From Dehalococcoidia bacterium (lineage in GTDB: Bacteria; Chloroflexota; Dehalococcoidia; UBA2979), in assembly GCA_009379925.1 (NCBI GenBank), contig WHSU01000014.1, positions 18,611 to 82,610 on the forward strand: a stretch of DNA of 64,000 nucleotides, in the 5' to 3' direction. This document shows positions 10,384 to 21,116 of this stretch, piece by piece. A program made the translations under genes and the position numbers. The notes under the pieces are model-generated. The model did not search any database and was not told the origin of the DNA. It saw only the letters and a program-made list of their open reading frames with translations. Position 1 is the stretch's first letter. Every line of letters begins with the position of its first letter.

Positions 10384-10455
10384 CGCATAGTCCTAGCTAC
10401 ATCCACTCGTCGAGCCGCAGTTCATGCAAATGGGCCGCGGCGTCCATTACTAACT

Positions 10456-10490
10456 ACAGACGGCTCATCCAAGCTGGATGAGCCGTCTGT
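10456..10490. repeat. perfect 16-bp inverted repeat (hairpin), 3-nt loop
   Basis: ACAGACGGCTCATCCA agc TGGATGAGCCGTCTGT, sitting in an AT-richer patch (cattactaact...aagtcttataccgttcaatggaatccgaatta). Confidence 0.85.
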
Positions 10491-10723
10491 AAGTCTTATA
10501 CCGTTCAATGGAATCCGAATTAGGCTCCCGGCGGGGCTCCCTGTCGGCTCCCTGGCTGCCCGGGTGACGAGCCCCGCACGTCCGGCCGCTCGCCAGGGTG
10601 ATGCGTGCTCGTCACCTCAAAGCCCGTCACGGCCGTCGCGGATCAGGAGCGTGATGCGGGGGCCCCGTGCGGCCGAGCTGCACGAACTCCGCGATCGCCT
10701 GCGCCGCCGGCCGCGGCAGCAGC

Positions 10724-11392
10724 TCAGGCATCCACTGCCAACGTCTCCCGACGCTGGGTTGCGCCGGACGTACCAGGGCGGAGGCGACTGAGGAAGCCCC
10801 CGTAGAACGACTCGCCAGTCCACCCCGTGCATCGCACGCAGCGGCTGTAGCCCGCCGCCTCAGCCTCCGCACACGAGATATCCACGGGCGCGCCTCCGCG
10901 GCCGCGCCCCAGCAGCGAGGGCACGGCGCACGAGTCCATGTGGTGCCAGTGATTGTCGGCGCCGAGGAAGCCGCCGCGGTCATGGCGGTCTTGCGCGGCG
11001 CCCATGACGTACTCGTGTGCCGCGTGTCCGCCGAGGTCGTGCTCGCAGCCGGCGCATGCGCCGTCCTGGTGCTCTCCCGGCAGATGGCCGCAGTACACGT
11101 TGGCGGTGACGATGGCAGCGTCAATGTGGGCGACGCCGACGGTCCCAACCACGTGGGCGCACCCGCGCTGGCCGTACTCCGGTTCCCCGGCGATGTAGCT
11201 CAGCTGCTCGAGGACGTCCGCCAGGAGCGCCACCTCGCGGGCTGAGACGACCGCCCCTGTGTGCGCCGACTCGAAGATGCGCTCGGTCATGTCGTCGCCG
11301 AAGTCGCGCACCAGGTCGATCGCGTCCGGCTGCTGCTGCATGAGGGCATCGACGGCTGCCGCGTGAAGGGTTGTCTGGGTGATCCGTGTCAC
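10724..11392 (-). CDS. hypothetical Cys/His-rich protein (222 aa)
   Basis: The ORF carries several C/H clusters (CGHLPGEHQDGACAGCEHDLGGHAAHE; NHWHHMDSC; SCAEAEAAGYSRCVRC). No family recognised. Confidence 0.45.
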   Translation of the reverse strand: MTRITQTTLHAAAVDALMQQQPDAIDLVRDFGDDMTERIFESAHTGAVVSAREVALLADVLEQLSYIAGEPEYGQRGCAHVVGTVGVAHIDAAIVTANVYCGHLPGEHQDGACAGCEHDLGGHAAHEYVMGAAQDRHDRGGFLGADNHWHHMDSCAVPSLLGRGRGGAPVDISCAEAEAAGYSRCVRCTGWTGESFYGGFLSRLRPGTSGATQRRETLAVDA

Positions 11393-11450
11393 GGCGCGGG
11401 TCCTTTCGGGAAGCCACTACGGGCGGTCGGCGAGGCAAGTCTCCGGCCGC

Positions 11451-11651
11451 CTACTTCGTTGTTCGGAGCCCCCTAAGCGCGAGCGGGACCGTCCCGGGGA
11501 TCCCCACCTCGCCGGACAACCAGCGGTAGACGGTGGAGCGGCTGACGTGGAGCTCCACGGCGAGCTGGGTCACCGTGTACGGGCTCCGGCCGATCCACTG
11601 CTTCAACTCTTCCGGGCTCATCGTGTCCCAATATGCGACAACAGGCGACAT
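11451..11651 (-). CDS. small HTH DNA-binding protein (Cro/excisionase-like)
   Basis: 66 aa. YTVTQLAVELHVSRSTVYRWLSGE is a clear helix-turn-helix. Confidence 0.7.
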   Translation of the reverse strand: MSPVVAYWDTMSPEELKQWIGRSPYTVTQLAVELHVSRSTVYRWLSGEVGIPGTVPLALRGLRTTK

Positions 11652-11655
11652 CGCG

Positions 11656-11961
11656 TCAAGCTTTGTCCTGGCGGCGCCGGTCCTTGCGGAGGGTGTCGGC
11701 CGGCACGCGCACGCGGCGCCCGTCCCTGCGGATGCGGTAGAGGTTCACCGGGTCAGGGACCGCACGCGCCCGCCGCCAGGCCCAGACAACGCGCGGGCTG
11801 ACGCCGGTCAGGCGCGCGATCAGGCCGTCGCTGAAGCCCGGATACCGCTCCAGCATGCGGCGGGCAACCAGGGCACGCCCGGCCGCCGTCGCCAGCGGCC
11901 CGAGGTGGTCTTCCGGCTGCCGGCTGAGCCGGTCCACATACTCGTCATCCACGACAGGCAT
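11656..11961 (-). CDS. small HTH DNA-binding protein
   Basis: Start taken at MPVVDDEYVDRL (ATG, complement of 11959-11961) so that the palindromes at 11990-12085 stay non-coding. The HTH-like segment is FSDGLIARLTGVSPRVVWAWRRA. Confidence 0.55.
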   Translation of the reverse strand: MPVVDDEYVDRLSRQPEDHLGPLATAAGRALVARRMLERYPGFSDGLIARLTGVSPRVVWAWRRARAVPDPVNLYRIRRDGRRVRVPADTLRKDRRRQDKA

Positions 11962-11989
11962 CACCGCTCTCCTCCGCGATCTGCTGATG

Positions 11990-12085
11990 CCCGCGAATCG
12001 CGGGCCTCCGCAATCTGCGGATATGTGACTTTCTCCCACATCCGCAGATTGCGGAACGCTTCACCGAAGTGTTACTTAGTAACAC
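11990..12085. promoter_or_regulatory. operator cluster in a divergent control region (three different perfect dyads)
   Basis: CCCGCGAaTCGCGGG (11990-12004). TCCGCAATCTGCGGAT (12007-12022) inverted against ATCCGCAGATTGCGGA (12040-12055), each holding a CCGCA-N3-TGCGG dyad, with centres ~33 bp apart. GTGTTACTtAGTAACAC (12069-12085). Confidence 0.6.
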
Positions 12086-12187
12086 CCTGCGTGCCGTTCA
12101 GAAACTGACCGCAGGGGCGCGCCGCTGAGTCGGGAAGCGTTCGCCGCGACCATCGGGATCTGGCCCTCCGAGAGGTGCCGCCGCGCG

Positions 12188-12274
12188 ATGTTCGCGGTCG
12201 CCGCGACCGCCGTCATCGCCAAGCGGCTGACGTGGGAGTACCTGACGCAATCGGGAGCACAAAGCCCCGCGTAA
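12188..12274 (+). CDS. possible 28-aa hydrophobic peptide
   Basis: Own translation gives MFAVAATAVIAKRLTWEYLTQSGAQSPA*, with GAGAGG 12 nt upstream. It is too short for the ORF track and is speculative. Confidence 0.2.
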   Translation: MFAVAATAVIAKRLTWEYLTQSGAQSPA

Positions 12275-12295
12275 GCGGGAAGGGAGAGGTAAGCG

Positions 12296-12426
12296 TGGTC
12301 GACAAGAAACCACCAAGAGAGCCGACACCTTGCGAGAAGTTCCGCGCGCTCGCAAAGCGCGTCGTGAATACTCCAACGCCGCAGAAGCCTCCGAAGGATG
12401 AGAAAGAGCGGCGCGCATCAGCGTGA
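12296..12426 (+). CDS. possible small basic protein (43 aa)
   Basis: GTG start preceded by GGGAGAGGTAAGC. Sequence VVDKKPPREPTPCEKFRALAKRVVNTPTPQKPPKDEKERRASA. Confidence 0.3.
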
Positions 12427-12465
12427 CCACTCGTCAAAGACTTCACGATCGGGTGGAGATGCACC

Positions 12466-13266
12466 GTGGTCGACATTCTCGACGATGCTAGGTTCCAATT
12501 CGACTCTGCGGAAGAACAACTCGATACCGTCGATGAACTCATTAGCGAGTTCCTCAAGAACGATCCGTATTCCTACGTGGTCGAGCGCAATCGCGTAACG
12601 GGCGAATACCTGTTCCGCGCGATCATCCGCGCGCATCCGGATCGGCGTCTCGTTAAGGTGATCGGGGATACTCTTCGCGACCTCAGAGTCGGACTCGACT
12701 ACGCCGCCCACGCTCTGTCCGAGATCGGGCATCCCGCTCCTGCTGGCACCGAGTTCCCAATCTTTTGGGATGGCGGGCGGTTCAAGGAGCTGGACGGTAA
12801 AGGCGAACCCAAGCGCGGTAGCGGGCTCTACAAAATCCGAGGCATGGATGCTCCCGTACAAGCAGCGATCCAAGGGTTGCAGCCGTTCATGGAAAGTCCC
12901 GGAGATCCGAAGGCCCATCCCCTGTGGATGCTCCACGATCTCGACATCGCCGCGAAGCACAAAAAGCCACTCGTTACCGGCGCGGTTGCGCACGTAGGCA
13001 TGGGGCTCGCTAACGGCTACATCAGCAGCATGAGCATCAGCAACGCGACCGCGGCGATCAAACCGGGGGCGTTTCATGACCGCGCAATAGTCGGTCGCAT
13101 CCTTGCTGCGCCCGATACGAATGTGAGTGTGAATCTCATACCGACCTACGACGTAGCCTTCGATCAGGCAGGCCCCGGCAGGGGAGAAATGGCACGTGGC
13201 GCACTCCGACGCCTTGTGCAACATGTCAAAGTCAATGTCCTCACCGAGTTGGAAAAACTCATCTAG
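12466..13266 (+). CDS. hypothetical protein (266 aa), lower-GC cargo gene
   Basis: Balanced K/E/D-containing composition, with motifs IGDTLRDLRVGLDYAAHAL and PLWMLHDLDIAAKHKKPL. An almost co-extensive antisense ORF (12418..13326) exists, so the strand choice is not certain. Confidence 0.5.
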   Translation: MVDILDDARFQFDSAEEQLDTVDELISEFLKNDPYSYVVERNRVTGEYLFRAIIRAHPDRRLVKVIGDTLRDLRVGLDYAAHALSEIGHPAPAGTEFPIFWDGGRFKELDGKGEPKRGSGLYKIRGMDAPVQAAIQGLQPFMESPGDPKAHPLWMLHDLDIAAKHKKPLVTGAVAHVGMGLANGYISSMSISNATAAIKPGAFHDRAIVGRILAAPDTNVSVNLIPTYDVAFDQAGPGRGEMARGALRRLVQHVKVNVLTELEKLI

Positions 13267-13341
13267 CGACTCGTCGTCTGCGTTCGCATCGCATGGCCGA
13301 TCGACCCCTTCGAGTATATTAGCCAAGGTAAGCTATTCTCC

Positions 13342-13632
13342 TCACCACGGGTGCACCTCCTCGACCTCAGCCGCCCGTGCGGCCTTCGACGCCGGCACGT
13401 CGCCGGCCAGCTCCGCCAGTACGACGATCGCCTGCGCCATGAACAGCAGCCGGCGCTCGATGTGGATGTCCCGTGCGAGGTCGCGGCCCATCTGCTCGCC
13501 AGCGCCGTCGCGCTTGAACGTCGGGACCTCGACGCCAGGCGGCAGCAGCCCGGCCAGCTCCTGCAGGACGGCGTGCACCTCCGCCTGGGCTTCGGCGCGA
13601 CGCTTCATGAGACTCGGAACCGATGCCATCAA
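13342..13632 (-). CDS. hypothetical protein (96 aa)
   Basis: ORF in the minus-strand operon. Its start overlaps the stop of the upstream ORF by 4 nt. Confidence 0.45.
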   Translation of the reverse strand: MMASVPSLMKRRAEAQAEVHAVLQELAGLLPPGVEVPTFKRDGAGEQMGRDLARDIHIERRLLFMAQAIVVLAELAGDVPASKAARAAEVEEVHPW

Positions 13633-13856
13633 CTCACCTCCGGTGTGTCCGTCTTCAGCATGTGGAGCATGGCGGTGCGGATGCGCGCCACCGCCGCGAG
13701 GCGCCGGACCTCAAGCTCGGGATCAGTCATCGGTGCGAGGCACCCATCCCGCACGGCCATGCCGTAGTAAGCGACCGCGACGGCCTGTTCCGGCGATAGG
13801 CCGGGCTTCCGCGACAGCCGCTCGACGATCGAAGCCGCATCGGACCATGGCGACAT
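13629..13856 (-). CDS. hypothetical protein (~75 aa)
   Basis: Start chosen at MSPWSDAASIVERL (complement of 13854-13856). The upstream part of ORF 13629..13925 is Arg-rich. Confidence 0.4.
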   Translation of the reverse strand: MSPWSDAASIVERLSRKPGLSPEQAVAVAYYGMAVRDGCLAPMTDPELEVRRLAAVARIRTAMLHMLKTDTPEVS

Positions 13857-13890
13857 CGAGGCTTTCGTCGTCCATCTGCACCGCTCCCCG

Positions 13891-14103
13891 TTAGACCGCC
13901 GCCTCCGCTGCGACGGTCTCCGCAATCAGCCCCAGCGCGTCGAGCACGTAGGTCTCGAATGCGAAGGGCTCATCGACGTTCGGCCGCGTCCACACCGGCG
14001 GGTCCGGTGTGGACGGCGCGACGGCCGCAACGTCGGCCAGCGCGGCCGCCAGTCGGTCCACGGCCGCCTCGCGGGCGACCTTCAAGACATCTCGGTCGGT
14101 CAT
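13891..14103 (-). CDS. hypothetical protein (70 aa)
   Basis: Acidic, Ala-rich ORF in operon context. Confidence 0.4.
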   Translation of the reverse strand: MTDRDVLKVAREAAVDRLAAALADVAAVAPSTPDPPVWTRPNVDEPFAFETYVLDALGLIAETVAAEAAV

Positions 14104-14113
14104 CTCGTGCCTC

Positions 14114-14497
14114 CTACATCCGTGCGCGCATGAGGCGCGGGTGGTTGCGCGGGTTGGACTCCGCTTCGATCAGCTCCGCCTTGATCTGCGGCCACCGCTT
14201 CGCGAACTCAGATTCCAGCCCGCCGGCGTCCAACCAGCGCGTGAGGTGCACCTCGCGGGCGGCCTCCAGCCGCTGGGCCTGGCGCTCCCGGTCCGCCTCG
14301 CGGGCGGCCGCAGCCTCGCGGTAAGCGCGCTCCGTGCGCTCCAACAGGTCGTGGAGCTGCTCCAGCCGCCGCTCCGAGCGGGCCGCCGCGTTGCGCCCGG
14401 CCTGGTGGCTGCGGTCGAAGCCGTCCCGAAGGGCGACCTCCGCCTGGATGTCGGCGCGGACGTCGTCAGGCGTCCGGTCCCGGTCGTTCATGCTCAT
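14114..14497 (-). CDS. hypothetical coiled-coil protein (127 aa)
   Basis: Charged heptad-like region ERRLEQLHDLLERTERAYREAAAAREADRERQAQRLEAAREV. It starts 8 nt after the TerL stop. Confidence 0.45.
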   Translation of the reverse strand: MSMNDRDRTPDDVRADIQAEVALRDGFDRSHQAGRNAAARSERRLEQLHDLLERTERAYREAAAAREADRERQAQRLEAAREVHLTRWLDAGGLESEFAKRWPQIKAELIEAESNPRNHPRLMRARM

Positions 14498-14505
14498 TCC
14501 CCTCG

Positions 14506-16110
14506 CTATCCCGCCCTCGTGTGTTGCAGACGGTCGATTGCCCGCTTCGATGCCGACAGCGGCACCACCTCCCGCACCCGGTACGCCTCCGCCCGCGCGT
14601 GGAACCCCTGCGCCACGTAGTGCTCCAGAAAAAGCACCGCCTGGACCAGGCTGTCCACCTGGTCGTCATGCGCCGCCGAGGGGAACGCGAAGAGCTCCGC
14701 CTCAAAGTCCGCCAGCCACGGCACCGCTTCGGACGGGTGAGGCAACAGCACGCAGCCGTTCCGCACCCAGACCGCCGCCTGCGACGCGCGGTACTCCTTC
14801 GAACCACCGGGCTCGAAGGGCAGCAGCATCCGCGCCAGCCAGTCCGGCGCCGACGCCCGCAGCGTTTGGAGCGCCGAGATGCCGCTGCCCTTGTCCTCAA
14901 TCAGCACGCCGCGCAACTTCAGGTCCCGGTTATAACGACGCCCGATCGCCTCGATGGTGCCGGGCAAGTCCGGGAACTGGAGCCGCTCCCGGTAGACCTC
15001 ACGCACGAGCAGCCGGTAGTCGGGCAGCATCTCGACCACGCACACCGCCGTGTAGTCGGAGCTGATGGTGTCCTTCATCGCGCTGTCGACGGAGATCCAG
15101 CGCCCCACACAGAGGTTGGCCGGACCGCCGTCCTCCGCGTCATACCGCAGACCCGCGAGCCACTCCCGGCGGAACGTCGCGCCCTCGCGGGCCACCGGGT
15201 GCTGCTGGTACAACGCGTCGAAGTCGACGCTTGACGCCCGCACTTTTTCGAGGCGGCTCAACGGATACCGCGCCGGCCACAAGGCCTCGCCCACCTCGCG
15301 GCCCAGCGGGTCCCCCGCCTCCGCGATGGCCGGCAGCCGCAACACCGTCCACCCCGCGAGGTCCGCGTCCAACGCACGCCCCGCCAGGTCGTCGAGGTGC
15401 CAGCGCGTCATCGAAAACACGATGGCCTGCGGGTCCTCAAGGCGCGTCTGCGCGACGTCGTTGAGCCACTCCCACGTGGTCTCGCGGTAGGTGACGCTGT
15501 CCGCCTCCCGCCGGTTCTTTACCGGGTCATCCACGATGAGCACGTTCGCGCCCGAACCCGTGATCCCGCCGCCCACGCCCGCTGCCAGGTAGCCGCCGTC
15601 CCGCCCTTCGATGTTCCACTCGCTCGCCGCGCTGGCGTCGTCAGCGACCCGCACGCCCGGGAACACGGTCGCGAAGTCCGGATGCGAGAGCAGGTTGCGC
15701 GCCCGCCGCCCGAAGCCGTTCGCCAGCCGCTGCGTGTGGCTGGCGGCGATGATGCGGCGGTCCGGGTGCCGCGCCAGGTACCACGTCGGGAAATGCACGC
15801 TGACGAGCTGCGACTTCCCGTGTCGTGGCGGAATCTCGATGAGCAGGCGCTCGATCTCGCCACGCTCCACCGCCTCCAGGGCCTCCGCGATGGCCACGTG
15901 CACGGCCGTCGGCCGGTAGTCGCGGTGCGTGATACCCACGAACGGCAGTAGGGAGTCCCGCGCAGCGTCCCGCGCCCATGGCATCACCACCCGGCACGCC
16001 GGACAGCGCGCGTCCTCTGGCGTCGCCCGGCCGTGGTCACAGTCCGAGGCGCGCTTCGTCTCCGAGGCCAGCCGTCCGACGCGGCGCTTCAGGCTGCCGT
16101 CGTTGCTCAC
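14506..16110 (-). CDS. terL: phage terminase large subunit
   Basis: 534 aa. ATPase region IEIPPRHGKSQLVS (Walker A-like) ...ANVLIVDDPVKN (Walker B-like), then SMTRWHLDDLAGRAL, and a nuclease-domain tail ending FPSAAHDDQVDSLVQAV typical of TerL. The GTG start overlaps the upstream stop (GTGA). Confidence 0.85.
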   Translation of the reverse strand: MSNDGSLKRRVGRLASETKRASDCDHGRATPEDARCPACRVVMPWARDAARDSLLPFVGITHRDYRPTAVHVAIAEALEAVERGEIERLLIEIPPRHGKSQLVSVHFPTWYLARHPDRRIIAASHTQRLANGFGRRARNLLSHPDFATVFPGVRVADDASAASEWNIEGRDGGYLAAGVGGGITGSGANVLIVDDPVKNRREADSVTYRETTWEWLNDVAQTRLEDPQAIVFSMTRWHLDDLAGRALDADLAGWTVLRLPAIAEAGDPLGREVGEALWPARYPLSRLEKVRASSVDFDALYQQHPVAREGATFRREWLAGLRYDAEDGGPANLCVGRWISVDSAMKDTISSDYTAVCVVEMLPDYRLLVREVYRERLQFPDLPGTIEAIGRRYNRDLKLRGVLIEDKGSGISALQTLRASAPDWLARMLLPFEPGGSKEYRASQAAVWVRNGCVLLPHPSEAVPWLADFEAELFAFPSAAHDDQVDSLVQAVLFLEHYVAQGFHARAEAYRVREVVPLSASKRAIDRLQHTRAG

Positions 16111-16400
16111 GGCGGCGCCCCTTCAGGAATGCCCGTAGCGGTCTCACCATTGACCCGCAGCGCCGTCGCCCACGCGGAGCGGCCCTCAGTGCCAGTCCGC
16201 ACGTGTAGCGGCTCTCTGGGCTTGCCGTGCGGTGCCGCGAATCGCTTCACGGGAATGCACCGCCGGGCGTCCGCCGGCCCGGTGCGGTGGCGGTCGAATG
16301 CCGTCACGCTGTTGAACTGCTCGTGGCAACTCACGCAGTGCGCCTGGGCCGCCGCACTCCACGCGCGCTCGCAAGTGCCGCATCGGGCCAGCACGCTCAT
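16107..16400 (-). CDS. small zinc-finger phage protein (97 aa)
   Basis: CGTCERAW...HCVSCHEQFNSVTAFDRHR is the Cys/His motif with FDRH common in high-GC phage genomes. GGGAGCC lies 5 nt before the ATG. Confidence 0.55.
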   Translation of the reverse strand: MSVLARCGTCERAWSAAAQAHCVSCHEQFNSVTAFDRHRTGPADARRCIPVKRFAAPHGKPREPLHVRTGTEGRSAWATALRVNGETATGIPEGAPP

Positions 16401-16403
16401 TGC

Positions 16404-16424
16404 AGGCTCCCGGGTAGGCTCCCG
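16404..16424. repeat. tandem AGGCTCCCGG motif pair (element-specific repeat, copy 2)
   Basis: aggctcccgggtaggctcccg, nearly identical to 21097-21116 (aggctcccggtaggctcccg). They differ by one G in a G-run. Confidence 0.8.
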
Positions 16425-16506
16425 CTGCGACCGACCGCGGCGCGAACGCCAGCGCTGGCAACCGCGCCGTCGTGAGACGCCGCAGTTCCTGGGCTCGCGG
16501 CGGCCC

Positions 16507-16899
16507 TCACGACGCGCCCTCTTCCGCTTCGCGGGCGAGCTCGATGCGGCGCACCCGCTCCTCGAGCTCGCCGTGCGAGAACACCTGAACCATCGCGCGG
16601 GCCACCGATGCCATGGCCTGTGCCTGCGCCGGGCTGATGGCCTTGCTGCGCACGTCCCGCAGCGCGTCCTCCAGCTCCGCGAAGATGGGCACGAGCTGCG
16701 TCGGTGTCGCCTTCCGGAGGCGCATCAGGCGGCTGCTGTTGCGTCCGCCCCGCTGCCGCGCCTCCACTCGGAGGGCCTGGAGGCTGGGGCTGTGGGCGAA
16801 GCAGTAGTGGTCATCCGCCAGCCGCGCGGCCCGGCAGGGCTGTCCATCGGCTCGCGTGGATTCGCAGCGGTCGCCGTCGCTGGCGAAGTCGTCGGTCAT
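16507..16899 (-). CDS. terminase small-subunit-like / DNA-recognition protein (130 aa), tentative
   Basis: Its own ATG (complement of 16897-16899) has GGAGG 5 nt upstream. The N-terminal metal-knuckle is DGDRCESTRADGQPCRAARLADDHYCFAH, followed by a helical tail. It sits just upstream of TerL. It is nested in-frame in the 709-aa ORF 16507..18636. Confidence 0.5.
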   Translation of the reverse strand: MTDDFASDGDRCESTRADGQPCRAARLADDHYCFAHSPSLQALRVEARQRGGRNSSRLMRLRKATPTQLVPIFAELEDALRDVRSKAISPAQAQAMASVARAMVQVFSHGELEERVRRIELAREAEEGAS

Positions 16900-16974
16900 G
16901 GGGTCGCCTCCGGGTGGTCGAGTATTGAGTGAGCGTGGCCCTCGTCCGGCGGGGAACAGTCGGCCGCGTCCCAC

Positions 16975-17075
16975 GTGTTCCCGGTTCCCCGACCGTTCCC
17001 CGTTCCTATAGGAAGGGGAACGGGGGAACGGTCGTCGGCGGTTCCCGGGGAACGGTGGGGGAACGGTGGAACGCT
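16975..17075. repeat. iteron array (candidate ori or pac site)
   Basis: GGGGAACGG at 17015, 17023, 17047 and 17058, plus a degenerate GGAACGC at 17068. Inverted copies are CCGTTCCCC at 16993, CCGGTTCCCC at 16981 and GTTCCC at 16977 and 17041. They flank a TATAGG centre (17007-17012). Confidence 0.65.
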
Positions 17076-17076
17076 G

Positions 17077-18621
17077 GGAGTCTTCGGACTCTCGGTACGG
17101 TCGGATGGAGCTGTGCTCAAGCTTGTTGCGCGCGGCCGAGTCGCACCGGATATAGCCCTCCGCGACGAGCAGGTCGATGGCGACCTTGACCGCGTCCTTT
17201 TTCCCCCTCACGCCGGCGTAGAGGTCGCGGAGGCCGATGCCGGGCCGGTGCTCCACCGCCTCGCTCACGCGCTGCATCAGGACCGTCGGGCGGAAGGTGC
17301 GCGTCGCCTCATCGGTGCCGCTGGGCGGCTCGACGGCTACGTCGACCGTGGCACCGGCGGCGTCGGCAGTGAGCGTCAACTCGGCCGCCCAGCGGCCCGC
17401 ACTGGCGATACCGTCCACGTAGCCGGCGCGGTCCTTCGACACCTTGAGGCGTGCGACGCCCTGGCGGCCGCGTCCGAAGGCGCGGCGCGCCTCCACGATG
17501 TAGGCCACACCGGTGATGCTCGCGCGCTTGTGCTGGGCACCGAGGGCGTAGGAACCGCGCTGGTCCGGTTTTTTGGCGACGTGGTCGATGAGCAGCACGG
17601 CGGGGCCGGCTAGGGCGATGCGCTTCGGCAGCATGCGGTCGAACGTTGCGTAGTCGTGATTCGAGTTGACCTCCAGGCCGTGCAGGCCCAGCGCGTCGGT
17701 GACGCCGTCGATGACGGCGAGCGTGGGCTGCAGTTGCGCGAGCACCGCGTCCAGGTCGCGCGCCTCCACATCGCCGAGCGGATCGGACGGTCGGATGTAG
17801 CGAAATCGCTCGCGCAGCACCTCGGGCGGCACACCGAGCGCGAGCAGGCGCTCGTGCACCTGGCCGCCATTCGCCTCGAAGTCGAGGTAGAGCGCCGCGC
17901 CACCGCCGAGGAGCACCTGCGCGCATGCGGCCTGCGCCAGCCACGACTTCATGGAGCCGCTCTCGCCGTAGAGCGCGTTCACCGCGCCGGCGTACAACAG
18001 GAACTCCCCATCCTCGCGCATGAAAATGCCCGGCGGCGGGTCGCCGGTGGCGTCAAGCGCGAGGTACCGTTCGGGGTCGTGCGGCGCCCAGGAGGTAGCG
18101 ACGTCGTCGCCCTGACTGTCGGCGATGGTGTCGTCGAACAGGTCGCGGGCGGTGCGCACGACGCGCTCGATCGGGACGTCGCCGCGGAACGCAAGCTGCC
18201 GGACCTGCGTGGTGTGGGCGATGAGCTGCCGGCGAAGGGCGGCCCTCTTAACGAGATCTGCGTGGGCCAGCGCGGCCGAGGCGAAGGCGAAGTGACCGTG
18301 GTCGCTGACCAGGGCCACGAGGTACGGCTCGCCGCCGGCCGCGTCTAGTCGCCCGACCCGGTCCAATTCGTGCGCTACGGTCTGTACCGTGACCGGCTCG
18401 CCCCGGTGGCCGAGGGCGCTGCAGGCCTCGAAGATCCAGCCATTCTGTTCGCGGTAGAAGTCGAGCGGTGCCAGCACGGTGCCCCGGACGGCGGGCAGCG
18501 CCTGCTCGTCGATCATCAACGCCGCCAGCACCACCTCCTCTGCCGCGATGTCGTGCGGGACGAGGGTGATCGGCTCGGCGGGGGTCCGCCCGTTCCGGCC
18601 GACAGAGCGCGGCGCCGCCAT
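17077..18621 (-). CDS. replication protein: DnaB-helicase N-terminal domain + RecA-like AAA_25 ATPase + C-terminal wHTH
   Basis: PHDIAAEEVVLAALMIDEQALP...FYREQNGWIFEAC...VAHELDRVGRLDAAGGEPYLVAL is DnaB-N-like. LLYAGAVNALYGESGSMKSWLAQAACAQVLLGGG...VLLIDHVAK is AAA_25-like. The start at 18621 overlaps the upstream stop (TAATG). The lower bound is approximate because no stop codon occurs before 16507: the frame stays open through the iterons into the TerS-like gene. Confidence 0.65.
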
Positions 18622-18854
18622 TAGGCCGCCCACCACGGGATTTCCCGGCGACGCTCAGCGCGTCGGGCATCGGCGGCCATCGCCCGACGACGACGTTCAG
18701 CGTCGCGCTCGTCACGAGGCCGATACGGGAGCGACGCCCAGCCGCACAAACAGGTGCGCTTCGCGAGGCCTGACGGGTGCCTCCAGGAAGTCGTAGCGCA
18801 GCCGCACCGCGGGCACGCCGGCGGGGCGGCTGCGGGGCCACGGCTACCCCACAC
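18621..18854 (-). CDS. possible small Zn-ribbon protein (77 aa)
   Basis: CPRCGC...CLCGW cysteine pairs, and the stop TAA overlaps the Rep ATG (TAATG). The composition is Arg/Ala-rich, so confidence is low. Confidence 0.3.
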   Translation of the reverse strand: MWGSRGPAAAPPACPRCGCATTSWRHPSGLAKRTCLCGWASLPYRPRDERDAERRRRAMAADARRAERRREIPWWAA

Positions 18855-18918
18855 CCCCCGCCGGCCCCGCCCGGACGGGGGGGTGTGCCCACGTCCCCCG
18901 TCCGGGTTGCGGTGGCGG

Positions 18919-19164
18919 TCAAGCGACGCTCGCGGTCTCGCGCGCGGCCAGCCACCGGTCGAGGGTCTCGACCCTCACAAGGCGCCGCCGGCCGATCAGC
19001 AGCGACGGCAACTCGCCGCTGAGGACATACGGATACAAGAAGGCCCGCGAAACACCCGCCCGCTCCGCCGCCTCCTCGACCGACAGAGCGAGCCGCGCGT
19101 CGTCGTGCTCGCTCAGGAACTCCCTGATGGCGTCGGTCGCCAGCTTCCGCAGTTCATCGTCCAT
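18919..19164 (-). CDS. excisionase-family / MerR-like HTH DNA-binding protein (81 aa)
   Basis: MDDELRKLATDAIREFL...LSVEEAAERAGVSRAFLYPYVLSGELPSLLIGRRRLVRVETLDRWL is the classic Xis/AlpA-type HTH_17 pattern. It is divergent from the integrase operon. Confidence 0.75.
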   Translation of the reverse strand: MDDELRKLATDAIREFLSEHDDARLALSVEEAAERAGVSRAFLYPYVLSGELPSLLIGRRRLVRVETLDRWLAARETASVA

Positions 19165-19277
19165 CGCCACCACCTCGCGTCCGTTGTCGTCCGCCTTCGT
19201 TGTAGGTAGACTAGCGGCGTAGTTACCCGCCATACGGCGGCAAAACCCGGCCGTCCGGCGAACTTGTAGGGATATCC

Positions 19278-19931
19278 ATGCCATCGGAAACGTCGCCTTG
19301 GTGGCAAGCAAAGGTGGCCGAGCTAACCGAGAATGCGGCGGACAACGCGCCTACGACGGACATCTATCGAAAAGTGGTGCGACTTGCCGCCGATGAGGAG
19401 GCCGCGATCCCGAACGACGAGCGCATGCGATCCCCGGCGGAACGCACCGTCCGCGATCTGGTCAAGGCGCACCGAGCGCGGTCACCCGAAGAACGGGGGC
19501 CGTTCCGGCATGTCCGCTGGCCAGAAACGTTCATTAGCGGTCTGCTGCCATGGGAAGCCGCCCGGACAGTGCTGGACGTCCTGCCTATCAACCCGGAGCG
19601 TCGGATCACTGTGGGCTGGGCACGCTGGTACTACCGACTCTGTCTCGCAGCGCCTGACGCCCCCCGCGCCGACCTGCATTGGTCGGCAACGAACATTGCG
19701 CAGTGCGAGGCGCTTGAGCTCCCAGTGGACTGGCGTGCCCTGGAGTGCTGGCTCGCTCTCTCGCCGTGGGAGGGCGAGGAAGCCGCTCAGCGCTACCACG
19801 ACGCGTGTCAGGCGCAGCGAATCGAGCGCTGGTTCCGGGGGGCGACGCGCGACATGCGACTGAACGAGTTGAGGGCGTTCGCACGTGCTTGGAACATTCC
19901 GATCCGCGAGATCAAGAAGGGCGGGGAGTGA
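19278..19931 (+). CDS. hypothetical Trp-rich protein (217 aa), first gene of the integrase operon
   Basis: The stop overlaps the integrase ATG (TGATG at 19929-19933). No family recognised. Confidence 0.5.
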   Translation: MPSETSPWWQAKVAELTENAADNAPTTDIYRKVVRLAADEEAAIPNDERMRSPAERTVRDLVKAHRARSPEERGPFRHVRWPETFISGLLPWEAARTVLDVLPINPERRITVGWARWYYRLCLAAPDAPRADLHWSATNIAQCEALELPVDWRALECWLALSPWEGEEAAQRYHDACQAQRIERWFRGATRDMRLNELRAFARAWNIPIREIKKGGE

Positions 19932-21109
19932 TGGTGGAAAAGAAGCGGCGGGCTCAGGGTGAAGGCGGGCTCTATCAGCGTGCCGACGGCAGGTGGGAGG
20001 CGACGCTACACCTCGGCTGGGGGCCGGACGGTAAGCGCCTCCGCCGTAAGGTGGTGGCGAAGACGAAGGCTGAGGCGGCTTCCCGCATCGCGCAGGTCCG
20101 GCGTGAGGTCGACGCGGGCCTGAATCCGCAGGCGGGGAAGCTCACCGTCGGCGCCTGGCTAGACACGTGGCTGCGTGACGAGGCGGCGCCTACGGTCCGC
20201 CCGCGCACGCTGGTGCAGTACCAGACGATCGTGCGCCTCCACCTCCGCCCAGCGCTCGGGCACATCAAACTACGCGCGCTGACACCTTCACAGATCCGCA
20301 AGTACGAGGCGGACAAGGTCGCCGGCGGCCTGAGCCCGCGCAGCGTGCAGAACCATCACATCGTGCTCAGGCGCGCTCTCGAGGTGGCCACGCGCTACCA
20401 ATACGTCGACCGCAACGTCGCGCGGCTCGTCTCGGCGCCGCGGGCGGAGCGTCACGAGTCACGGCCGCTCACCCGTGACGAGGCCACGCGCCTGCTCACG
20501 GCCGCGGCCGGGCACCCACTCGAGGCGCTCTTCGTGCTGGCGGCCAGCACCGGCATGCGCAGGGCGGAGGTCCTGGGCCTCACGTGGCAGCATGTCGACC
20601 TGGACGCCGGCACGGTCCGCGTCGAGAAGACGCTCGTGCGCTACGACGGCGCCTACCACCTCGACCCGCCGAAGACGGCGCAGAGCCGGCGCACCGTCGT
20701 GATCCCGGGCGGCGTGGTCGACGCGCTGCGCGCCCACCGTCAGCGGCAGACGGATGCGGCAGTCGCGGCGGAGGTCTGGGGCAACGCCTGGGGCCTCGTG
20801 TTCACGGACGCCATCGGCCGGCCGGTGTCCGAACGGCGGGTGCACTCAGAGTTCTGGGCGCTCCTCGACCGCGCGCAGGTTCGGCGGGTGCGCTTCCATG
20901 ACCTCCGCCACGGCGCCGCCACCTTCCTGCTGGCCCAGGGCGTCCCGATGAAGGTCGTGCAGTCGATCCTCGGGCATGCGCAGATCGCGATCACCGCGGA
21001 CCTCTACAGCCACGTCGCCCCCGAGCTGCACCGCGACGCGGCCGACCGCATCGGCGCCCTGCTCTTCGGCGGGGCCGGCGAAGACGGCCAGAAAGTAGGC
21101 TCCCGGTAG
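19931..21109 (+). CDS. int: tyrosine recombinase / phage integrase
   Basis: MVEKKRRAQGEGGLYQRADGRWEATLHLGWGPDGKRLRRKVVAKTKAEA is an N-terminal arm/SAM-like domain. The catalytic region has TGMRRAEVLGL, VRFHDLRHGAATFLLAQG and LGHAQIAITADLYSHV (R..H-x-x-R..H..Y). Confidence 0.9.
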   Translation: MVEKKRRAQGEGGLYQRADGRWEATLHLGWGPDGKRLRRKVVAKTKAEAASRIAQVRREVDAGLNPQAGKLTVGAWLDTWLRDEAAPTVRPRTLVQYQTIVRLHLRPALGHIKLRALTPSQIRKYEADKVAGGLSPRSVQNHHIVLRRALEVATRYQYVDRNVARLVSAPRAERHESRPLTRDEATRLLTAAAGHPLEALFVLAASTGMRRAEVLGLTWQHVDLDAGTVRVEKTLVRYDGAYHLDPPKTAQSRRTVVIPGGVVDALRAHRQRQTDAAVAAEVWGNAWGLVFTDAIGRPVSERRVHSEFWALLDRAQVRRVRFHDLRHGAATFLLAQGVPMKVVQSILGHAQIAITADLYSHVAPELHRDAADRIGALLFGGAGEDGQKVGSR

Positions 21110-21116
21110 GCTCCCG
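21096..21116. repeat. tandem TAGGCTCCCG(G) motif pair (copy 3), overlaps the integrase stop codon
   Basis: taggctcccgg taggctcccg. The first 11-mer is identical to 10521-10531. Confidence 0.8.

Follow-up and report, generated by a model that had tools for sequence, protein, structure and literature searches.

A repeat array at the 3' end of a DnaB-like rep gene as the probable iteron-type origin of a small integrative element in a Dehalococcoidia genome

In the genome of a Dehalococcoidia bacterium (assembly GCA_009379925.1), short direct and inverted repeats are crowded between two genes of a small integrative element, one encoding a replication protein (Rep) and the other a small protein, here called X. 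The DNA analysed is a 64,000-nt stretch of contig WHSU01000014.1 (positions 18,611 to 82,610), referred to below as the window; coordinates are those of the window unless another sequence is named. The locus raises two questions, namely what function the repeats serve, and why a single open reading frame (ORF) crosses them without interruption, from rep into the gene of X. The preliminary description of this DNA had likened the arrangement to the replication origins of staphylococcal pathogenicity islands (SaPIs) and had considered, as an alternative, a packaging (pac) site for X, regarded as similar to a small terminase subunit (TerS). Our analysis indicates that the array is very probably an iteron-type replication origin of the element (approx. 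10 kb), whose cognate initiator would be the Rep protein encoded immediately upstream.

The composition of the array was examined at the level of individual copies (all features are listed in Table 1). Seven sites, in both orientations and located at 16951-17066, are GGGGAACGG-type 9-mers with at most one mismatch. Four exact copies of GGGGAACGG are present on the + strand (at 17015, 17023, 17047 and 17058), together with the copy GGGGAACAG at 16951 and a copy with two mismatches, GTGGAACGC, at 17066. The inverted copies include the exact form CCGTTCCCC at 16993, one with a single mismatch (16982) and two with two mismatches each (17000 and 17039). The preliminary description, which had counted at least four direct copies plus a degenerate one and at least three inverted copies, was therefore accurate: there are four exact direct copies, and four inverted ones when those with mismatches are included. 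The whole 64-kb window (GC content approx. 69-70%) holds seven exact copies, five of which fall within 74 nt, and elsewhere in it no 150-nt segment contains more than two sites with up to one mismatch. Moreover, the 3.54-Mb genome has just two occurrences of the paired pattern GGGGAACGG-N0-14-GGGAACGG, both of them inside the array, and this paired-pattern search found no second iteron cluster in the genome. The repeats are clustered beyond chance, and the array is unique in the genome.

At the centre of the array is an inverted repeat (12/12 nt matching, 21-nt loop). When the sequence is drawn as a hairpin, its stems consist of the tight direct pair and the inverted group, and its loop is CTTCCTATAG (approx. 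17005-17014, about 10 nt), which is the spot of lowest GC content in the array. The central sequence, ...CCCCGTTCC TATA GGAAGGGG... (approx. 17000-17014), has a GC content of 55-60%, compared with about 70% around it. The AT-rich centre of the preliminary description measures no more than some 10 nt. Folding of the hairpin as single-stranded DNA gave -37.8 kcal/mol (z = -3.2).

Table 1. Features of the rep-array-X region and of neighbouring genes (window coordinates)
Feature	Position	Strand	Description and basis
Iteron array	16951..17074	.	11 sites of GGGGAACGG/CCGTTCCCC type, 0-2 mismatches, both orientations
Array, element 1 in rep direction: direct cluster	17074-17047		11-nt spacing
Array, element 2: inverted copy	17047-17039		
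Array, element 3: tight direct pair	17031-17015		
Array, element 4: loop			between tight direct pair and inverted group
Array, element 5: inverted group	17008-16982		
Array, element 6: distal direct copy	16959-16951		
Central palindrome/hairpin	16990..17034	.	2 iterons pair with 2 inverted iterons
Rep core, approx. 515 aa	17090..18636	-	DnaB N-terminal domain, helicase core, winged helix
DnaB N-terminal domain	18253-18558 (residues 27-128)	-	Pfam DnaB, 1.9e-17; PDB matches to DnaB N-domains
AAA_25/RecA-type helicase	17569-18000 (residues 213-356)	-	Pfam AAA_25, 5.5e-11
Winged helix (modelled)	17107-17286 (approx. residues 451-510)	-	AF2 model and Foldseek
Read-through stretch of the 709-aa ORF	16900..17089	-	array-encoded, SEDSQRSTVPPPFPGNRRRPFPRSPSYRNGERSG...GGDP; not conserved as protein
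X start site	16896..16911	-	GGAGG 16911-16907; 7-nt spacer; ATG 16899-16897; TGA 16898-16896
Protein X, 130 aa	16507..16899	-	homologue alignment; AF2; context of 80 homologues
FDXHR zinc-binding protein	16107-16400	-	Pfam PF24071, 9e-14
Terminase large subunit (TerL)	14506-16110	-	Terminase_6N/6C; PHROG 38, 3e-102

The recognisable modules of Rep occupy the first approx. 525 residues of the ORF. The AAA_25 match scores 42.9 bits (Pfam cut-off 27), and the protein also matches PHROG 19 (DnaB-like helicase). Its C-terminal domain gave a weak winged-helix profile match (RPA_C, E = 0.012). In an AF2 model of residues 421-525, computed from an alignment of 51 relatives, the folded region reaches a pLDDT of 93-97 and its topology is H-S-H-H-S-wing-S; the top Foldseek matches of this model are all winged-helix domains (MarR, BlaI/MecI, Fur and the RPC62 WH; rmsd 1.1-3 Å over approx. 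60 residues). As modelled, the C-terminal domain of Rep is a winged helix. The array begins 15-20 nt past the end of the region encoding it, with 7 sites (up to one mismatch) or 11 sites (up to two), and the coordinates and domain limits thus confirm the earlier statement that the repeats lie immediately 3' of the helicase domains of Rep.

The N-terminal module varies among relatives of Rep, in which DnaB_N, Prim-Pol or Toprim is found at the same position. The part of the rep gene that encodes this module (18317-18559) shares 67-74% DNA identity with the chromosomal dnaB of the same genome (G000:C21:164368-164614) and with the dnaB genes of about 17 related genomes; for the remainder of rep there is no match there. 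This suggests that the N-terminal module may have been captured from a dnaB gene of the host lineage. The element itself was found in none of 40 relatives of the host genome: their only matching stretch corresponds to the DnaB N-domain and belongs to their own dnaB.

Comparison with other loci connects the array with Rep. The closest homologue of Rep (P0003, 55% amino acid identity) is encoded on a Logan contig (locus L001), in which the CCGTTCCCC motif recurs in equal order and place, within the 3' end of the rep ORF; the gene downstream is unrelated to X. We gathered approx. 140 further loci encoding Rep relatives from IMG/VR and GTDB genomes. They are mostly from Actinomycetota (e.g. Thermoleophilia, Acidimicrobiia, Streptomyces and Mycobacterium). 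Of 88 non-identical loci, mostly prophages of Actinomycetota, 79 have no 300-nt segment richer in repeats than the one that follows the winged helix, and the median number of 9-mer copies in this segment is 8 (control mean 2.1). The arrays have a common architecture: three or four direct copies spaced by 10-11 bp are separated by a gap from a close pair of direct copies, which is followed by one or two inverted copies and a last direct copy. The order of elements in the window agrees with it, although the first direct cluster contains two good copies as opposed to at least three in most relatives.

The preliminary description had reasoned that a protein conserved continuously across this stretch, with no conservation of the repeats as DNA, would speak against a functional array. 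What we found is the reverse: the CCGTTCCCC repeats are kept in the same place in L001, and in approx. 80 more distant loci the architecture of the array is kept while the 9-mers differ. The 9-mer is locus-specific, as exemplified by CCGTTCCCC, CCTCGTCCC, CCGTGTCCC, GGGGCACAC, AGTTGTTCC and AGTTTTTCC. The similarity of Rep proteins is correlated with that of their motifs (Mantel rho 0.35; none of 1000 permutations as high), and locus pairs with more than 70% identity of the C-terminal part have a common motif in 93% of cases. The uniform architecture, the locus-specific 9-mer and the motif similarity that follows Rep therefore lead us to assign the array to Rep. Computed for the winged helix, rho is 0.35, and for the helicase domain it is 0.36; this indicates co-descent of Rep and the array and favours neither domain as the one that recognises the motif. 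Between the window and L001, the array and the rep coding DNA are 68% and 67% identical, respectively, and no extra conservation beyond the iteron cores is therefore claimed.

One of the relatives belongs to an isolated virus, the Microcystis phage MinS1. Its Rep homologue is full-length, with 37.6% identity, and a CCACCTCGTCCC array comes after it; the motif of this phage is represented by CCTCGTCCC among the examples given above. A hairpin equivalent to that of the window is present both in this phage and in L001. In the MinS1 sequence (L151, MZ923504.1), a hypothetical coding sequence (CDS) of 64 aa (UIU47017.1, 4557-4751) consists nearly entirely of the CCACCTCGTCCC iteron array, and is probably a spurious gene call over the origin.

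These features are consistent with the following course of initiation. Several Rep protomers would attach to the 9-mers by their winged helices; in the first cluster the 9-mers keep a phase of 10-11 bp, and on the two sides of the palindrome they point in opposite directions. Melting or extrusion of the palindrome by Rep would follow, and Rep, with its RecA-type (AAA_25) core of helicase superfamily 4 (SF4), would load itself as a ring helicase, in the manner of SaPI Rep and the alpha protein of phage P4. The DnaB N-terminal domain would recruit the host primase; in relatives its position is occupied by a Prim-Pol or Toprim primase. We infer from this pattern that Rep binds and melts the array, and that the array supports autonomous replication.

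An array bound by Rep, or by some other protein, could instead act mainly as a regulatory operator, through which rep is autoregulated or the transcription of X and TerL is gated. Such a function would suit a site placed at the junction of replication and packaging genes; it has also been raised for repeats at the 3' end of the rep gene of the RepAM type (PMC2440964), and a hairpin of this strength could attenuate transcription. We consider it highly improbable that this is the principal role of the array, which stays with Rep while the downstream genes differ between loci, and whose phased and opposed iterons beside a winged-helix helicase form the pattern of an origin. Furthermore, an Rfam scan and a promoter and terminator scan of the array region revealed nothing relevant, and neither a U-tract terminator nor a promoter-like site was found there. 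It should be noted that the operator and origin roles are not mutually exclusive.

The origin reading has its own weak points. The low-GC centre spans only about 10 nt at 55-60% GC, and nothing that would clearly serve as a long DNA-unwinding element is present. Among the 88 loci, many are closely related to one another (65 have distinct C-terminal domains), and the co-variation of motif and Rep could reflect plain co-descent, such that rho alone does not demonstrate recognition. Finally, binding by Rep and replication from the array are deduced from sequence patterns.

The possibility of a pac site depends on the identity of X. This protein has a C3H zinc ribbon (C12, C22, C33, H36). It also contains a GGRNS motif, and its C-terminus forms a long helix whose last residues are GELEERVR; its AF2 model has a pLDDT of 81. 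It matched no entry of Pfam, PHROGs or NCBIfam, a Foldseek fold search of the PDB returned no match with E<1, and no relatives were found in IMG/VR. Homologues of X (found in a search limited to proteins of 72-228 aa) are all standalone; they are 117-147 aa long and share their starting point. We examined the context of X in 80 metagenomic loci encoding a homologue. The ORFs upstream encode Prim-Pol, PriCT_1, AAA_25, DUF3631/RepAM, DnaG-type zinc ribbon or D5_N proteins, and those downstream encode integrases and helix-turn-helix or sigma-70 region 4 proteins. No terminase family was present among the 25 most frequent Pfam families (of 63) of 47 downstream ORFs, and a short TerL match was detected in one of 81 X-homologue loci (L217). 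An array of at least five copies lies just upstream of the X homologue in 3 of 70 loci, the other 67 being without an array, and none of the approx. 140 array-bearing Rep loci encodes an X homologue.

In the absence of a terminase signal, with neighbours of the replication type and an array in only 3 of 70 loci, neither the TerS label of the preliminary description, which was based on position, nor the pac site is supported. It is true that X is encoded two genes upstream of TerL, the usual place of TerS, that its zinc ribbon and long helix could allow oligomerisation, and that an origin could in principle double as a pac site. Nevertheless, since the array follows Rep whatever gene lies downstream and X homologues mostly occur without it, we find it extremely unlikely that the array is a pac site, or another binding site, for X acting as a small terminase. 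X could still conceivably be the TerS of a satellite lacking TerL.

Taken by itself, X represents an uncharacterised family (loci L150 and L152-L231) encoded directly downstream of unrelated replication-protein families, often near a tyrosine integrase, in small metagenomic integrative elements. In the element that encodes the closest X homologue (L150), the gap that separates the AAA_25 rep gene from the primase gene (1214-1349 of that locus) may hold the most repeat-rich segment of the locus. Nine copies occur somewhere in this locus, and an array at 1214-1349 would fit the placement of arrays after rep.

The second question concerned the continuous reading frame. The ORF on the - strand (18636..16507) is open for 709 codons (704 aa according to the gene callers, P0002), and so, as had been noticed previously, no stop codon separates Rep from X. 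The same holds for the observation that another frame ends with ATGA on the start codon of X: the ATG is in frame with rep, and the TGA terminates the +1 frame, which is open from above 17198. X has a GGAGG-ATG start of its own; the ATG lies at 16899-16897 and not at 16902.

A comparison with homologous rep genes, proposed in the preliminary description as a means of finding the natural stop, was carried out for the 65 loci with distinct C-terminal domains. The rep gene ends before the array in 41 of them (often 0-15 nt from the first iteron), inside it in 5 and after it in 19. The array-encoded tail is thus not conserved as protein. Leaving aside the window, there are 18 read-through loci; in 11 of them the rep stop overlaps the start of the next ORF by 4 nt (NTGA), and one more has TGATG. 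In the usual state of such loci, rep is therefore translated across the origin and coupled to the gene that follows. Overall, rep of the relatives either stops shortly ahead of the array or is translated through it as far as an NTGA overlap with the following gene.

The ATGA of the window conforms to this coupling signal, but it is located in the +1 frame, and hence an indel within the array most likely placed rep in frame with X. Comparison with L001 points to a candidate. Between the conserved YRE anchor and the central pair, the window has 11 nt fewer than L001, which corresponds to one iteron period, and the two rep ORFs cross the palindrome in different frames. Since 11 equals 2 modulo 3, the palindrome frame of L001 is the +1 frame of the window, and DDRSPVP is encoded in both. 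One 11-nt iteron unit, which shifts the frame by one, is a candidate for the indel, and the indel may be either a real mutation or an assembly error. The fusion of Rep and X is, judging from these comparisons, most likely accidental and due to an indel that moved rep out of the ATGA-terminated frame. The array is most likely constrained as DNA and not as coding sequence, with the 709-aa ORF as a by-product, and X would be made from its own GGAGG-ATG. Two points weigh against a frame slip: the 11-nt difference can be placed in two ways, because the iteron units are tandem, and the contig encodes intact MetE (788 aa) and NrdJ (1208 aa), which speaks against an assembly prone to indels in general.

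If the assembly is taken at face value, a long Rep-X protein and a short X initiated at the internal GGAGG-ATG could both be functional, with X modulating or tethering Rep. The uninterrupted frame and the intact conserved genes of the contig agree with this idea, and so does the recurrence of X homologues downstream of Prim-Pol, PriCT_1, AAA_25, DUF3631 and D5_N proteins, which suggests a link with replication. Plasmids encoding two in-frame forms of Rep have reportedly been described. The fusion is, however, unique: no other protein spanning Rep and X was found, the only one covering 99% of the query being the window's own. In addition, every X homologue found is standalone within the size limits given above, the linker is encoded by iterons and is not conserved as protein, and the ATGA coupling signal lies in the +1 frame. 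A functional fusion is consequently unlikely in our view, and the comparative evidence favours a change of frame relative to an ATGA-coupled arrangement over a designed Rep-X protein.

A further scenario is that the origin is deliberately embedded in a translated rep tail, with the gain or loss of iterons acting as a slippage-driven switch that determines where Rep ends and whether it is coupled or fused to the next gene. A change of one unit would alter the frame, because the unit is 10-11 nt long. If this were true, the window would represent one state of the switch (a Rep-X fusion plus free X), and X would be a partner of the replication module that is found beside several unrelated Rep families. 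We regard this scenario as very unlikely.

SaPI origins comprise 6-12 iterons immediately downstream of rep, arranged around a central AT-rich region with at least two iterons on each side in opposite directions, and SaPI Rep has a C-terminal winged helix (PMC9371898). The locus in the window matches this plan in the position, number and opposed orientation of the iterons and in the winged helix, and the initiator is itself a helicase. As in SaPIs and other phage-inducible chromosomal islands (PICIs), the element is a small island that carries an integrase gene. The SaPI-type arrangement suggested at the outset is supported as regards the iterons 3' of rep and their opposed orientation; the centre that they flank is a low-GC hairpin loop of about 10 nt, at 55-60% GC in a background of 70%. 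There are also differences. SaPI Rep belongs to the pre-sensor II insert clade of AAA+ proteins, whereas Rep of the window combines a RecA-type AAA_25 core with a DnaB N-domain; SaPI iterons are 5-6 nt long and those described here 9-11 nt; the centre in the window is a GC-rich hairpin in which only the loop of approx. 10 nt has a lower GC content; and the array is translated as the tail of rep in many relatives. Since its core is RecA-type, and not AAA+ or superfamily 3 (SF3), Rep is not a member of the SaPI/P4 helicase families.

Another system to be considered is RepAM of the actinomycete integrative elements pMEA300, pMEA100 and pSE211, which contains DUF3631 (PMC3218068; PF12307). Purified RepAM binds multiple identical 8-bp repeats that lie at the 3' end of the gene encoding it and are capable of forming a hairpin (PMC2440964). 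RepAM of pMEA300 is the closest described arrangement in the same host group, given that Actinomycetota harbour most relatives of the window Rep. Common features are the repeats in the 3' end of rep and a hairpin made of repeats; repeats in the 3' end of rep are likewise seen in the 19 of 65 relatives mentioned above. Membership of the RepAM family was rejected, as a search of Rep for PF12307 gave no hit at E<=10. For RepAM elements a pC194-like nick motif, CTTGAT, has been proposed; neither it nor ATCAAG occurs in 16900-17100. Moreover, rolling-circle replication has been proposed for RepAM, whereas Rep of the window is of the ring-helicase type.

Several phage and plasmid systems share single traits with the locus. 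The alpha protein of P4 unites a primase and an SF3 helicase with a C-terminal domain that binds the origin at octamer iterons, which are recognised in either orientation, and P4 has a second site, crr. In contrast, the genome containing the window has no second iteron cluster, and its Rep is not an SF3 helicase. The iterons of phage lambda (ori-lambda) are located inside the coding sequence of its own initiator, the O protein, which is not a helicase. RepA of RSF1010 and the DnaB-type SF4 helicases have the same AAA_25 ATPase core family as the Rep described here; they are loaded by separate initiators and possess neither an origin-binding winged helix nor adjacent iterons of their own.

The iteron origin described here is well supported; it is ordinary as a kind, but would define the origin for a large, uncharacterised family of Rep proteins. 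Few replication origins have been mapped in actinobacterial prophages, satellites and integrative elements. For Rep proteins with an AAA_25 core and a C-terminal winged helix, our results suggest the rule that the origin is a locus-specific 9-mer array at, or just past, the end of the winged-helix-coding region. This rule provides candidate origins in approx. 80 elements, including the isolated phage MinS1, and predicts cognate Rep-iteron pairs that could be used as orthogonal replicons. It would also mean that a second helicase superfamily has reached the layout of the self-loading initiator-helicases of SaPIs and P4. There is a warning for annotation as well: long rep ORFs (such as the 704/709-aa call) and small hypothetical CDSs over arrays are probably by-products of GC-rich repeats.

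The element as a whole extends from approx. 10.4 kb to a tyrosine integrase gene (19745-21109, +), which abuts nrdJ. Within these limits (approx. 10400-21110) it contains the integrase, the Rep-origin module, X, the FDXHR zinc-binding protein and TerL, with small ORFs alone after TerL. No portal, protease or capsid gene was recognisable in it by Pfam or PHROGs, and a search for att repeats yielded nothing convincing. The element looks like a satellite or a remnant. A sequence of 60 nt that covers the beginning of rep and the DNA immediately upstream (18627-18686) recurs, with 90% identity, on a different contig of this genome (G000:C4:9082-9141).

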